Shown: positions 7,000 to 11,371 of the stretch, one piece after another
Layout of the letters: each line of letters starts with the position of its first letter
Numbering within the stretch: the stretch's first letter is position 1
Virus genome (UHGV): UHGV-1824706
Strand: one strand, 5' to 3'
Length of the DNA: 15,677 bases
Source of the DNA: a virus
The notes under the pieces: model-generated
The model's database searches: none
Seen by the model: the letters and a program-made list of their open reading frames with translations, nothing else
Told to the model about the DNA's origin: nothing
Program-made: the position numbers and the translations under genes

Positions 7000-7098
7000 C
7001 TCCGTTATTAACCATGAACAAAGAATACTACAGGTATTCAAGGCAATCAATACTTAGGGTATTTTTAGTTTAAGTACCTTAGCTATTAGAATTAAGCT
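7000..7098. promoter_or_regulatory. OR region: divergent PR (toward cro) and PRM (toward cI) with 17-bp operators
   Basis: Operators GAATACTACAGGTATTC (7023-7039) and CAATACTTAGGGTATTT (7048-7064), centres 25 bp apart; PR -35 TTGATT and -10 TATTCT on the minus strand; PRM -10 TAGAAT (7087-7092) about 7 nt before the cI ATG. Confidence 0.6.
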
Positions 7099-7815
7099 AT
7101 GGAAAATAAAAAATCACTGACGACAGAACAGCTGGAAGACGCTAAGCGGCTTAAGGCTTTGTATGAGTCAAAAAAGAAAGAATTGGGAATAACCCAATAC
7201 TCAATCGCTGATGAACTGGGTATCACCCAAGGAGCGGTAGGGCATTATCTTAATGGCAGAAATGCGCTAAACGTTGAGGTTGCATCTGGTTTTGCACGAT
7301 TGTTGCAAGTCTCAATTGCTGATTTTAGCCAGTCAATTGCTGCCAAGGTTGCAGAACAGGCAGAAAGCCTTAAGAGCGATGCCAACGTAAGGTATGCAGG
7401 GGAATACAGAGCAGGAAAGAGGTATCCGGTGTTAAGCAGTATCCAGGCTGGCTCGTGGTGTGAAGCATGCGAACCATACACCATTAAAGACATAGATGTT
7501 TGGCTTGAGTCTGACGCGCATATTCAAGGTAATGCGTTCTGGCTTAAAGTGGAAGGTGATTCAATGACGGCACCGGTTGGGTTAAGCATTCCAGAGGGAA
7601 CATTCGTTCTTTTCGATACCGGAAGGGAGGCGATCAACGGCAGCTTGGTCATAGCAAAACTTTCTGACTCTAACGAAGCAACATTCAAGAAGCTGATAAT
7701 CGACGGCGGAAATAAATACCTCAAGGGACTTAATCCTGCATGGCCTCTCGTGCCAATCAATGGAAACTGCAAGATTATAGGCGTTGCAATTGAGACAAAA
7801 CTCAGACTGGTTTGA
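7099..7815 (+). CDS. cI: CI-type prophage repressor (HTH N-domain plus LexA-like S24 autocleavage C-domain), 238 aa
   Basis: N-terminus LTTEQLEDAKRLKALYESKKKELGITQ is lambda-cI-like; C-domain has the catalytic Ser (EGDSMTAP) and Lys (TFKKL) motifs. Confidence 0.9.
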   Translation: MENKKSLTTEQLEDAKRLKALYESKKKELGITQYSIADELGITQGAVGHYLNGRNALNVEVASGFARLLQVSIADFSQSIAAKVAEQAESLKSDANVRYAGEYRAGKRYPVLSSIQAGSWCEACEPYTIKDIDVWLESDAHIQGNAFWLKVEGDSMTAPVGLSIPEGTFVLFDTGREAINGSLVIAKLSDSNEATFKKLIIDGGNKYLKGLNPAWPLVPINGNCKIIGVAIETKLRLV

Positions 7816-8287: not shown

Positions 8288-8375
8288 AAATATCCTTTGT
8301 ATTCATTTGCTTATCATTATTTCATCAAAAATAAATACCTCGGGTATTTACACAATAAAATACCTACAGTATTCT
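8288..8375 (+). promoter_or_regulatory. OL/PL: leftward-operon promoter with 17-bp operators
   Basis: Operators AAATACCTCGGGTATTT (8333-8349, near-perfect palindrome) and AAATACCTACAGTATTC (8358-8374), centres 25 bp apart; weaker third site near 8288-8304; -35 TTTACA (8347-8352), 17-nt spacer, -10 TATTCT (8370-8375). Confidence 0.55.
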
Positions 8376-8421
8376 TTAGCCATCAGCAGGACGCTGGTAG
8401 CCAAACGGAACAGATTGGCAG

Positions 8422-8462
8422 GCTCTTTAACATTGATGGGATTGTCCCGCCGAAATGCGGGA
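8422..8462 (+). promoter_or_regulatory. nutL: boxA GCTCTTTAAC plus boxB hairpin UCCCGC-CGAAAU-GCGGGA
   Basis: boxA at 8422-8431; boxB 8445-8462 shares an identical 18-nt core with the nutR boxB. Confidence 0.6.
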
Positions 8463-8775
8463 ACCAAAGAGTAGTTGGCTTTGGGGTGACGTGAAGTGCA
8501 GCTGCACGACGGCAACCGGAAGATAAGCACCCGGCGCGTCACCGCCAAAGTCAATTCCATAGGCGTTATGCAGCCGCCACCATATTCAAGAAAGCTGCAC
8601 AAGAGGTAGGAGGATTTATGTGAATACTTACATTCAGTTGAGAGATTAATTAAATAGAACTGATCGAGCAGAGTCCATAAAGGCTCATAAATGCTCTTCC
8701 ATCCCCGTCTAATTGGCGGGGAAGGAAACAACTTTGTAATAAAAAAATTCCAAAGTTGTTTCATCGGAGGTCAAC

Positions 8776-9075
8776 ATGACAGTAGTCATTACATATCTGG
8801 CTGACGATAACGCCAGAAATCGCCGCAGAGCACGCAGACAGGCTCAACGTGAACAGGCAATGCAAGAGCAGCGACTGGCGCGAAAAATTGCGCTAAAGCT
8901 CTCTGGTTGCGTCAGAGCAGATAAAGCAGCATCACTCGGAAGCCTTCGCTGCAAGAAGGCAGAAGAAGTCGAGCGTAAACAGAATCGTATTTACTACCGC
9001 AAGCCACGCAGTGAAATGGGTGTGACTTGTGTTGGTCGCCAGAAAATGAAATTAGGCAGCAAACCACTTATTTAA
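8776..9075 (+). CDS. N: N-like transcription antiterminator (99 aa) with arginine-rich motif
   Basis: ARM DNARNRRRARRQAQREQ near the N-terminus; C-terminus YYRKPRSEMGVTCVGRQKMKLGSKPLI parallels the lambda N C-terminus; SD GGAGG; downstream of nutL. Confidence 0.8.
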   Translation: MTVVITYLADDNARNRRRARRQAQREQAMQEQRLARKIALKLSGCVRADKAASLGSLRCKKAEEVERKQNRIYYRKPRSEMGVTCVGRQKMKLGSKPLI

Positions 9076-9083
9076 GGTGATAT

Positions 9084-9170
9084 ATGGAAGAAGAATTTGA
9101 AGAGTTCGAAGAGCATCCGCAGGATGTGATGGAACAATACCAGGACTATCCTTATGACTACGACTATTGA
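9084..9170 (+). CDS. orf28-like acidic micro-protein (28 aa); not in the ORF track
   Basis: Hand translation MEEEFEEFEEHPQDVMEQYQDYPYDYDY; SD AAGGTGA; overlaps the start of the ral-like gene, as orf28 does next to ral in lambda. Confidence 0.4.
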   Translation: MEEEFEEFEEHPQDVMEQYQDYPYDYDY

Positions 9171-9354
9171 TAAAAATCAATGGTGTGGACAATTCAAGCG
9201 ATGCAATGGATGCAAGCTGCAATCGGAATGCATGGTTAAGCCTGAAGAAATGTTTCCTGTAATGGAAAATGGGAAATATGTCGATAAATGGGCAATACGA
9301 ACGACGGCAATGATTGCCAGAGAACTTGGTAAACAGAACAACAAGGCTGCCTGA
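9154..9354 (+). CDS. ral: Ral-like restriction-alleviation protein (66 aa, four Cys)
   Basis: MTTTIDKNQWCGQFKRCNGCKLQSEC... matches lambda Ral as I recall it in size, position after N/orf28 and sequence; this is recall, not an alignment. Confidence 0.6.
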   Translation: MTTTIDKNQWCGQFKRCNGCKLQSECMVKPEEMFPVMENGKYVDKWAIRTTAMIARELGKQNNKAA

Positions 9355-9390
9355 TGGTGGCCTTTATTTTCTTATTTGAGAGGAATTAAT

Positions 9391-10014
9391 ATGTCATCAA
9401 TCCGCTTAACTACGAGAATGAAAGAGAAAATCGCTCGTAACGCTTTAATTAAGTCTGGGGTTTTCACTGAACTTGAAGAAGTAACAAAGTTAAAGAACCA
9501 GCTTGCACTTGACGCCAGAGTTATTGCGTTTGGCGGTAAAAAGAAAACTGAGGAAGTGGATCAGTTATCATCCAAGTTGGCAGCTATAAGTGAAGAACTT
9601 GAAAAGATGGGATGTTCACTTTACTCATACGATGTTCGTTCTGCTTCGATTTATCTGACTGTATCTGGAAGAAGGGTTGGCTGGCATTCATACGGAAAAG
9701 GCGGCAACGGTGAAGATATATTGCTCCCCACCCCAGAAAAAGATAAATGCATGTTTGACGCAGAACACGAAATAACAAAAAGGTTTGATGAAATCTGCGC
9801 ATTGCAAAAAAAACTTGAAGCCAAGAAAAAGGATATCGAATCAAATGTATGGGCTGCTTTGAACTCAGTCACAACAGTTAAGCGACTTATTGAAGTTTGG
9901 CCTGAAAGCAAAGAGTTACTACCAAAAGAAGCAGATAAAGCAAGTACAGCACTTCCTGCTTTACGGGTAGAAGATTTGAATAAGATGATTGGACTTCCTT
10001 CCGAGGCCGCATAG
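9391..10014 (+). CDS. Hypothetical protein (207 aa), function unknown; orphan gene in the N-cIII accessory hotspot
   Basis: Start MSSIRLTTRMKEK with SD GAGAGGAA; no motif I can recognise; own terminator immediately downstream. Confidence 0.6.
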   Translation: MSSIRLTTRMKEKIARNALIKSGVFTELEEVTKLKNQLALDARVIAFGGKKKTEEVDQLSSKLAAISEELEKMGCSLYSYDVRSASIYLTVSGRRVGWHSYGKGGNGEDILLPTPEKDKCMFDAEHEITKRFDEICALQKKLEAKKKDIESNVWAALNSVTTVKRLIEVWPESKELLPKEADKASTALPALRVEDLNKMIGLPSEAA

Positions 10015-10030
10015 TCGGCCTTTATTTTTG
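10003..10030 (+). terminator. Intrinsic terminator after the 207-aa gene
   Basis: AGGCCG-catagt-CGGCCT hairpin (the stop codon lies in the loop) followed by TTTATTTTT. Confidence 0.6.
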
Positions 10031-10148
10031 GCATAAACAACAGAATAAACACAGCACTGTGTATTCATTCCAACGAGTGAATACACGGAGCAATGTCGCT
10101 CGTAACTAAACAGGAGCCGACTTGTTCTGATTATTGGAAATCTTCTTT

Positions 10149-10176
10149 GCCCTCCAGTGTGAGGGCCTTTTTATAT
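10149..10176 (+). terminator. Second intrinsic terminator-like hairpin upstream of cIII
   Basis: GCCCTC-cagtgt-GAGGGC followed by CTTTTTATAT. Confidence 0.55.
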
Positions 10177-10238
10177 GCATACCAATAACGCTTCATTCGA
10201 GGCGTTTTCGTTATGCAATCAAACAGAAGGAGCATCCT

Positions 10239-10409
10239 ATGCAACAGTTCGCTATTGCAGGGGCGGCATCGGTTCGCCCTTTCAACCCGATTTTATCGGT
10301 ACAGCATTCACGAAAAAATATTTTAACCGGAGCAGACTTTAAACAACCAAGAATGAAAAGTTTGCTCGAAAAGCTTTGGGATATTTTGAAACAACAAGGC
10401 CGCCCATGA
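10239..10409 (+). CDS. cIII: CIII-like protein (FtsH/HflB inhibitor family), 56 aa
   Basis: MQQFAIAG...SLLEKLWDILKQQGRP parallels lambda CIII (MQYAIAG...LIDILNQPGVP); SD AGGAG; start is internal to the 91-aa track ORF. Confidence 0.65.
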   Translation: MQQFAIAGAASVRPFNPILSVQHSRKNILTGADFKQPRMKSLLEKLWDILKQQGRP

Positions 10410-10663: not shown

Positions 10664-11371
10664 ATGGATTTGAATAAATTCGATGAGCCATTCAGCCCTG
10701 AAGATATCGAATGGCGAATACAGCAAAGCGGTAAAACACGCGATGGCAAGGTGTGGGCTATGGTGCTGGCTTATGTCACGAACAGGGCAATCATGAAACG
10801 CCTGGACGATGTTTGCGGCAAAGCAGGATGGCGCAATGAATACCGCGATATTCCCAACAACGGCGGCGTTGAATGCGGCATATCGATAAAGATTGATTCC
10901 GAATGGGTAACCAAATGGGATGCTGCTGAAAACACGCAGGTAGAAGCCGTCAAAGGTGGTCGTTCCGGTGCAATGAAGCGCGCTGCCGTTCAGTGGGGAA
11001 TCGGTCGGTATCTGTATAACCTTGAGGAAGGTTTCGCACAAACATCTCTCGATAAAAAGCAGGGGTGGCACAGGGCAAAACTGAAGGATGGAACAGGATT
11101 TTACTGGCTCCCTCCATCGCTGCCGGGATGGGCAATCCCAGCATCAGATAACAAACCATCACCAGAAAATACCAACCAGAAATCTCCATCGGTTGACTGC
11201 GAACAAATCCTGAAAGACTTCAGCGATTATGCATCAACAGAAACTGACAAGAAAAAACTCATAGAACGTTATCAGCATGACTGGCAATTAATGGCTGGCA
11301 ATGAGGATGCGCAGGCTAAATGCGTTCAGGTAATGAACATCAGAGTTAACGAACTAAAACAGGCGGCATAA
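10664..11371 (+). CDS. Rad52/Sak-type single-strand annealing protein (phage recombinase), 235 aa
   Basis: KGGRSGAMKRAAVQWGIGRYLYNL resembles the Rad52-family annealing signature; sits immediately upstream of ssb; SD GAGGTGA. Confidence 0.65.
   Translation: MDLNKFDEPFSPEDIEWRIQQSGKTRDGKVWAMVLAYVTNRAIMKRLDDVCGKAGWRNEYRDIPNNGGVECGISIKIDSEWVTKWDAAENTQVEAVKGGRSGAMKRAAVQWGIGRYLYNLEEGFAQTSLDKKQGWHRAKLKDGTGFYWLPPSLPGWAIPASDNKPSPENTNQKSPSVDCEQILKDFSDYASTETDKKKLIERYQHDWQLMAGNEDAQAKCVQVMNIRVNELKQAA

Follow-up and report, generated by a model that had tools for sequence, protein, structure and literature searches.

The terminators tL2a and tL2b of phage lambda have been known since the 1980s, and their role as a barrier that N antitermination must overcome ahead of cIII and the recombination genes is established lambda biology. 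DicF, encoded in the dicB operon of the Qin prophage, is an Hfq-binding small RNA of a lambdoid prophage. Its gene lies in the early operon close to the immunity region, and the RNA, which is freed from a polycistronic transcript and ends in an intrinsic terminator, has essential host genes among its targets.

Between the ral and ea10 genes of lambda lies an Hfq-dependent small RNA described as LPR1 and since renamed PreS (Silverman et al., bioRxiv 10.1101/2024.10.31.621285). The same work confirms the name tL2a for the terminator that forms the 3' end of lambda PreS, and reports RNA species of ~88 nt and ~68 nt that are enriched with Hfq. Lambda PreS is made in the lytic cycle only, being seen within 10 min of induction and absent in lysogens. 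It opens the ribosome-binding site of dnaN, raising dnaN translation, and it represses alaS, both effects having been confirmed by compensatory mutations. Deletion of PreS, or of its seed, lowers the spontaneous plaque yield 2- to 4-fold in an Hfq-dependent manner. The accompanying search for homologues covered sequences of at least 92% identity only (bioRxiv 10.1101/2024.10.31.621285).

Here, we consider a 15,677-nt stretch of the virus genome UHGV-1824706 (one strand, 5' to 3'; hereafter the window), in which positions 10015–10238 had been flagged by a first-pass annotation as a non-coding segment that could represent a small RNA, a regulated attenuator of cIII expression or a protein-binding site. 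Our comparisons indicate that this segment very probably corresponds to tL2 in the early-left (PL) operon of a lambdoid phage, carrying PreS, tL2a and a tL2b-like hairpin. The segment is already known in kind, PreS since 2024 and tL2a and tL2b as classical terminators. Recognition of PreS at this location explains a seemingly "empty" interval of 220 bp and removes the tempting, but wrong, idea of an extra operator.

Results

Genomic context and coding content

The segment is embedded in a set of genes whose arrangement is that of a PL operon: an N-like antiterminator (8776–9075; Pfam and PHROGs), Ral (9154–9354; Pfam) and cIII (10239–10409) are all encoded on the plus strand, with a 207-aa Nmad5-domain protein (9391–10014; PF18757, 7e-71; phrog_1965, function unknown) interposed. 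A CI-like repressor with HTH and S24 peptidase domains is encoded at 7099–7815 (domain searches), and a Rad52/Erf-like annealase at 10664–11371 (Pfam and PHROGs). The order along the operon is N, ral, the putative Nmad5 moron, a unit consisting of hairpin, PreS and tL2a, the tL2b-like hairpin and, finally, cIII. Farther upstream, a leader of ~400 nt separates OL from N, and an opposite-strand ORF of 138 aa (8348–8764) has no Pfam hit.

The true start of the 56-aa cIII (phrog_550, 1e-22) is the ATG at 10239, which is preceded by the Shine-Dalgarno sequence AAGGAG at 10227–10232. The view that the interval holds no convincing ORF was borne out by the ORF check, the sole plus-strand ORF that enters it being the cIII frame extended to a TTG codon (10134–10409). 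Coding potential of the interval was rejected, as the candidates came down to this extended frame and antisense ORFs.

Terminators and the inverted repeat

Hairpins followed by T-rich tails on the plus strand delimit the parts of the segment. The first, T1 (10003–10030), stands at the end of the Nmad5 gene and consists of GAGGCCGCATAGTCGGCCTT at 10003–10022 followed by TATTTTT to 10029 (sequence reading, terminator scan and alignments). The second, T2, consists of GCCCTCCAGTGTGAGGGC at 10149–10166 followed by CTTTTT to 10172 (sequence reading and terminator scan). Both had been put forward as intrinsic terminators (10003–10030 and 10149–10176), and the scan recovered a hairpin and a T tract at each. 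It also returned a third hairpin, T3, which had gone unlisted in the first pass and consists of AACGCTTCATTCGAGGCGTT at 10187–10206 followed by TTCGTT. All three display the G+C-rich stem-loop and T run on the plus strand that characterize Rho-independent terminators, the tail of T3 being weak. Between positions 8700 and 10700, the plus strand contains 5 terminator-like sites, compared with 1.8 ± 1.5 in shuffled sequences.

T1 is followed by an A/C-rich linker (10031–10056, plus strand) that contains the box GAATAAACAC (10043–10052), as delineated by locus comparisons, and then by the inverted repeat for which the segment had been singled out. The repeat, GTGTATTCA at 10059–10067 and TGAATACAC at 10078–10086, is a perfect one of 9 bp, exactly as proposed, and forms the core of a longer RNA stem of 14 bp with arms at 10057–10070 and 10075–10088 and the loop CAAC. 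The energy of this stem is −20.4 kcal/mol (z = −6.7), and none of 200 shuffled sequences folds equally well. When the 224-nt segment was shuffled 5000 times, perfect inverted repeats of at least 9 bp with a loop of 3–20 nt arose in 60 of the shuffles; 3 of 138 tiles of the window contain one. RNA folding had been recommended as a check on the interval, and the 154-nt interval as a whole also folds more stably than its shuffles (z = −4.6).

Similarity to lambda PreS and the lambda tL2 region

A scan of the segment against Rfam 15 gave no hits at the gathering score, and relaxing the limit to E ≤ 10 returned only unrelated families, with best E-values of 1.5–3.8; AgvB, AsxR, DicF, STnc100 and others were among the covariance models without a match at the gathering score. 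As Rfam 15 holds no PreS family, membership in that family is here judged by sequence identity. Similar DNA occurs in 334–372 phage records and in 2238 of 5426 complete E. coli genomes (~41%), mostly at 95–99% identity. BLAST and MAFFT align window positions 10011–10176 with lambda 33923–34087, the ral–ea10 intergenic region, at 96.4% identity, and positions 10177–10262 with lambda 33443–33522, which comprises the ea10–cIII spacer, the cIII leader and the start of cIII. In lambda, ea10 is inserted between the second and third hairpins.

The ends of PreS can be transferred to the window through the primer table of the lambda study (primers P810, P1103 and P1104). The +1 nucleotide, which is taken from the authors' cloning primers and not from 5' end mapping, is the G of GAGCAATGTCGCTCGTAACT (GAGCAATGTCGC...) and corresponds to position 10088. 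The 3' end, ...CCTCCAGTGTGAGGGCGATTTTTTA, corresponds to the stem at 10149–10166 together with CTTTTT to 10172, so that the PreS orthologue occupies 85 nt on the plus strand (10088–10172; alignment with lambda and primer table). From +1 through the terminator stem, the window and lambda are identical at 79 of 79 nt; they part in the tail that follows, CTTTTT in the window and GATTTTTT in lambda, and their lengths are accordingly 85 nt and ~88 nt. In a sample of 127 sequences, which contained 57 PreS alleles, that of the window is the commonest.

T2, which forms the 3' end of PreS and its predicted Hfq-binding module (10149–10172), is homologous to tL2a at lambda 33925–33950, as indicated by the scan, by alignment and by the Sf6 record, where this second hairpin is labelled 'homology to phage lambda; tL2A'. 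Terminators are annotated at the second hairpin in the records of HK75 and phage 21 as well, and in that of HK75 also at the third. The latter hairpin with its T-rich tail (10187–10213, plus strand) lies in the cIII leader and aligns with lambda 33488–33512. We take the lambda coordinates of tL2a and tL2b to be 33930 and 33494, both names and numbers being partly assumed, and the third hairpin presumably stands at the position of tL2b.

On these grounds, the window element is assigned to the PreS/LPR1 family, all the testable defining features of which are present in it. Of the options raised in the first pass, that of a small RNA is upheld, positions 10088–10172 being a copy of the Hfq-dependent lambda RNA that ends in the second terminator, tL2a. 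The regulated attenuator of cIII stands in the classical sense only, namely, that tL2a and the tL2b-like hairpin precede cIII in a PL operon subject to N antitermination; otherwise it falls.

Existing records illustrate how the locus is treated at present. A 91-aa, TTG-started "cIII" is annotated in mEpX1 (locus L001, 2636–2911) and starts inside the PreS seed, and a 48-aa hypothetical protein, gp33, is annotated in BTP1 (locus L005, 503–649) over the hairpin as well as the 5' part of PreS. These annotations probably arose because the small RNA was not known. With no Rfam family for PreS, annotation pipelines leave the stretch blank or place spurious ORFs over it.

The seed region and its pairing with the dnaN leader

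The PreS seed region, located with the primer table and by duplex energy, corresponds to CUUGUUCUGAUUAUUGGAAAUCUUCUUUG at 10121–10149 on the plus strand. It is identical to that of lambda, and hence the positions altered in the lambda mutants are intact: the 18-nt deletion of lpr1-delta-seed maps to 10123–10140 (primer table), the LPR1-M1 site (CTG) to 10127–10129 and the LPR1-M2 site (GAA) to 10137–10139. Against the dnaA–dnaN junction of E. coli MG1655, the seed pairs perfectly in two blocks, of 11 and 12 bp, in which UGUUCUGAUUA is matched with UAAUCAGAACA and AAAUCUUCUUUG with CAAAGAAGAUUU. The predicted duplex with the E. coli dnaN leader has an energy of −28.3 kcal/mol (z = −5.7), a value reached by none of 1000 shuffles. 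The calculation was restricted to the seed and accompanied by shuffles, because RNAduplex with full-length PreS over-extends the pairing with dnaN and is uninformative. The target itself, the 3' end of dnaA that serves as the dnaN leader (AAAGAAGATTTTTCNAATTTAATCAGAACATT), is almost invariant in 120 matching genome loci (L134–L253), mostly of Enterobacteriaceae; such a near-invariant leader would let one small RNA serve many hosts.

RNAalifold applied to 21 PreS alleles supports a 5' hairpin GAGC/GCUC and a middle stem with one covarying pair; because MAFFT misaligned the two terminator types among these alleles, we make no claim of covariation for the terminator. In the minimum free energy fold of the 154-nt interval, the upstream stretch CAGAAUAA (10041–10048) pairs over 8 bp with UUGUUCUG of the seed (10122–10129), so that the seed could be masked in unprocessed transcripts. 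The CAGAAUAA stretch belongs to the lambda-type context only, and many PreS loci are without it.

A divergent form of PreS, ~74% identical and 101–106 nt long, is present in P22-like Salmonella phages (BTP1, g341c, SI5 and Oslo). It was found at loci L005 (BTP1, 601–703), L006, L007 and L008, and also at L015, L018, L027 and L128. This form combines the seed CGUUCUGGUUAAUCGAAAAAUC with an insert of 12–16 nt, both of which remain complementary to the dnaN leader. The computed pairing amounts to −32.3 kcal/mol with a Salmonella leader (z = −6.2) and −28.0 kcal/mol with the E. coli leader, a difference that traces to a single synonymous TCA/TCG change in the leader. Two loci, L126 and L128, carry hybrid PreS alleles. 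Since homologues below 92% identity fall outside those given in the preprint, the Salmonella-type variant may be undescribed. A PreS that has diverged this far and still matches the dnaN leader extends the published picture, the kind of system remaining unchanged.

The hairpin at the 5' end of PreS

The last paired base of the 14-bp hairpin that holds the 9-bp repeat (10057–10088, plus strand) is the PreS +1 itself, as given by folding and by the +1 position from primers P810, P969 and P1103. We compared this hairpin across 130 collected loci containing GAGCAATNTCGCTCGTAAC. In all 130, a hairpin ends 0–2 nt before the PreS +1, and its stem belongs to one of four types that are unrelated in sequence: that of lambda (112 loci), ATAGCAGA/TCTGCTAT (12 loci), AATGACCA/TGGTCATT (4 loci) or AATGCGGA/TCCGCATT (2 loci). 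The stems of the four types measure 11–14 bp, with folding z values from −2.9 to −6.7. Conservation of structure over sequence in related prophages, another check that had been recommended for this segment, is what these loci display.

Among the lambda-type hairpins, five sequence variants have their changes confined to the loop or its edge. Pairing survives three changes in the stem (two of A>G facing U and one of U>C facing G), one further change produces a mismatch and another loses a terminal pair. The two A>G changes yield G·U pairs in the plus-strand RNA only, the other strand acquiring A·C mismatches. Hairpin and PreS types recombine, as exemplified by mEp043, which joins a type C hairpin to a lambda-type PreS, and by locus L124, which joins a lambda-type hairpin to a Salmonella-type PreS; at least two PreS seed variants are shuffled independently of the hairpin type.

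Each of the four hairpin types is flanked by GCAC on the 5' side and by G(N)GAGC, which covers PreS +1 to +4, on the 3' side, and these flanks can base-pair with each other at the foot of the stem (window 10054–10091; loci L005, L008, L015 and others). The GAGC at PreS +1 to +4 also forms the invariant PreS 5' hairpin GAGC/GCUC, and this sharing could constitute a folding switch between precursor and mature RNA.

Retention of structure with replacement of sequence at the 5' end of PreS suggests a role in processing or insulation. The text of the preprint, searched for 'hairpin', 'stem' and 'promoter', yielded nothing relevant on PreS biogenesis (bioRxiv 10.1101/2024.10.31.621285), and literature searches on RNase III processing of the PL transcript and on a "boundary sequence" yielded nothing bearing on this site. 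The point about the hairpin, which the preprint does not make, extends the published picture without changing the kind of system.

Mosaic joints around PreS

At the 3' end of ral, a hairpin and T tract (9343–9371, plus strand; scan and alignment with lambda ral) constitute the left copy of a GGCCTTTATTTT boundary hairpin. In the window, this hairpin reads AAGGCTGCC...GGCCTTTATTTT; that of lambda runs straight into TTGGCATAAA..., which is the segment from window position ~10011 onward. The Nmad5 gene ends in a second GGCCTTTATTTT hairpin, T1, and the cassette is bracketed by the copies at 9343–9371 and 10003–10030, whereas lambda is without the Nmad5 cassette and has a single GGCCTTTATTTT hairpin. 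The Nmad5 gene has the appearance of a moron that recombination placed at a terminator boundary sequence. T1 follows different genes in mEpX1 and Sf6 and therefore marks a mosaic boundary.

Other joints lie farther downstream. A box related to GAATAAACAC, GAATAAGCAC, forms the stop-codon end of various upstream ORFs in other phages, and homology begins at 10053 in many phages. Homology breakpoints among phage genomes fall at window positions 10053, 10088, 10172 and 10215, and mEp043 has only positions 10088–10172, the precise extent of PreS, in common with the window. Cassettes are thus exchanged at the terminator hairpins and at the ends of PreS. At the 10053 joint of E. coli O111:H- 11128 (locus L004, 3045–3541), a 471-bp ORF (WP_000167579.1) is situated between the A/C-rich linker and the hairpin, with AGCACTG on both sides of the insertion.

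Discussion

The relationship to lambda suggests how the segment would operate. PreS would be a trans-acting small RNA made only when PL is derepressed, that is, during the lytic cycle, and the tL2a stem and U tail at its 3' end would load it onto Hfq. The single-stranded seed at 10121–10149 would then pair with the dnaA–dnaN junction and open the dnaN ribosome-binding site; the resulting activation of dnaN would supply more beta clamp and help replication of the phage DNA, and the same seed region would repress alaS. These steps have been demonstrated experimentally for lambda (bioRxiv 10.1101/2024.10.31.621285), and for the window we infer them from the identity of nucleotides 1–79 and the computed pairing with dnaN. 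With the Nmad5 gene and T1 interposed after ral, PreS could be transcribed at a lower level here. Downstream, tL2a and tL2b would together make expression of the recombination genes and of cIII depend on antitermination by N, the latter gene requiring read-through of both terminators. The hairpin abutting +1 would act as RNA: it would define or insulate the 5' end of PreS or, once the transcript has been cleaved, cap the upstream mRNA at its 3' end.

The resemblance of the inverted repeat to operator half-sites invites a different reading, in which the repeat is a DNA binding site, an extra operator, through which CI or Cro regulates transcription into cIII. GTATTC and GAATAC are indeed the half-site hexamers of the OR and OL of this phage, and GTATTC is over-represented in the window (13 copies vs 5.9 expected). 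The first-pass annotation had noted that the hexamers stand in reversed order in the repeat, and this is correct: the operators, in regions 7023–7065 and 8288–8375, are palindromes of the type GAATAC/AAATAC-N5-GTATTC/GTATTT, comprising two clear OR sites, among them GAATACtacagGTATTC at 7023–7039, and three OL sites (8288–8304; AAATACctcggGTATTT at 8334–8350; AAATACctacaGTATTC at 8359–8375), whereas the repeat is GTATTC-N12-GAATAC, with the half-sites the other way round and a spacing of 12 bp in place of 5. Furthermore, an identical copy of the repeat is present in lambda, Sf6, phage 21 and mEpX1, which we take to differ in immunity type, the operators read here being those of the window, and the operators of lambda are presumably unrelated in sequence. 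Other lineages have exchanged the repeat for unrelated palindromes, keeping the hairpin as such and the adjacent PreS, and the A>G changes that create G·U pairs fit pairing in RNA and not a DNA palindrome. Given the reversed order, the 12-bp spacing and the identity among the four phages, we reject an operator role, the probability of which appears negligible. Another reading sees a mere stack of PL-operon terminators, forming an N-dependent barrier before cIII at which RNA would end as a functionless by-product. In its favour, three terminator-like hairpins occur within 220 bp, homology to lambda tL2a and tL2b is evident and the tL2 cluster is the classical barrier of this kind. However, hundreds of phages have nearly the same 60 nt ahead of the tL2a stem, whereas the loop and tail of the terminator vary; the 74%-identical Salmonella variant keeps, and even extends, its complementarity to the dnaN leader; and in lambda, Hfq binding, validated targets and a phage phenotype have been reported (bioRxiv 10.1101/2024.10.31.621285). 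Such a by-product is, in our estimation, very improbable.

The two remaining alternatives concern the 5' end. PreS could be a primary transcript from a promoter of its own hidden in the hairpin region rather than a product of the PL transcript, a view for which it can be said that many small RNAs have their own promoters and that the preprint is silent on the origin of the 5' end (bioRxiv 10.1101/2024.10.31.621285). Yet the promoter scan found no sigma-70-like site in 10015–10238, the hexamers at −12 to −7 in three hairpin types (AGTGAA, AGTGGT and AGTCTG) include none like TATAAT, and expression of the lambda RNA is strictly lytic, downstream of CI cleavage (bioRxiv 10.1101/2024.10.31.621285). 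We rejected a dedicated sigma-70 promoter, which we regard as improbable, on the basis of the empty scan and the −10 positions that are not conserved across hairpin types; for the same reasons, processing from the PL transcript is the most likely origin of PreS. It is somewhat easier to imagine, though still unlikely, that the hairpins and conserved boxes are recombination-junction boundary sequences with no role in RNA, the repeat persisting by hitch-hiking. The Sf6 annotation 'bsq4; boundary sequence' spans the hairpin and PreS, homology breaks at 10011, 10053, 10088 and 10172, and cassettes have been inserted at these places (Nmad5 here, ea10 in lambda and the 471-bp ORF in O111). What such boundaries leave unexplained is that four unrelated sequences at one spot all fold into hairpins of 11–14 bp and that substitutions avoid the stem or keep the pair. 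The boundary function is compatible with our preferred explanation, a PreS locus with an RNA hairpin at its 5' end, because RNA ends and recombination joints can coincide.

For the hairpin itself, the balance tips slightly toward a function at the RNA level. A more specific proposal, which we offer tentatively and with less confidence, is that it represents a modular, exchangeable element for maturation or insulation of the 5' end within a mobile cassette that also comprises the box, PreS and the terminator. The hairpin would then guide the nuclease cut, or the folding switch, by which PreS is released from the PL transcript, and the recombination joints of lambdoid mosaics would coincide with sites of RNA processing.

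Several small RNAs of prophages invite comparison with this locus. DicF resembles PreS in being an operon-embedded, terminator-ended Hfq-binding RNA of a prophage, but the Rfam DicF model has no match here, at the gathering score or at E ≤ 10, and DicF targets ftsZ, compared with dnaN and alaS for PreS. AgvB and AsxR of EHEC prophages are likewise short, Hfq-binding prophage RNAs with terminators (Tree et al. 2014, PMC4104026), and the A/C-rich stretch at 10034–10055 superficially recalls the CACAACA motif of GcvB targets. They differ in their size of 51–60 nt and in their location at the PR' moron site downstream of Q (PMC4104026), and their models, RF02702 and RF02703, have no match here. 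An AgvB-like anti-GcvB RNA was rejected on account of that size, that location and the absence of a model match, the A/C stretch moreover being absent from many PreS loci. RalA of the Rac prophage is an Hfq-dependent small RNA beside a gene called ral (PMC4041452); it lies opposite to ralR and pairs with the ralR mRNA, whereas the element described here lies on the same strand as ral and is predicted to have host targets. RalR is unrelated to lambda Ral (24% identity; PMC4041452), and a RalA-type antitoxin was set aside as an unrelated, opposite-strand system whose RalR is no homologue of Ral, a distinction drawn by description rather than by direct sequence comparison.

The closest counterparts are those of lambda. 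In the tL2 cluster, T2 aligns with lambda 33925–33950 and T3 with 33488–33512, but tL2a and tL2b are 430 bp apart in lambda, with ea10 between them, and 20 bp apart here. With lambda PreS, the window element shares 79 of 79 nt, the same seed with the M1 and M2 sites, a place in the PL operon between ral and cIII, an end at tL2a and complementarity to dnaN. The window differs in its surroundings: ea10 is absent, so that PreS directly precedes the cIII leader, and the Nmad5 gene lies between ral and PreS.
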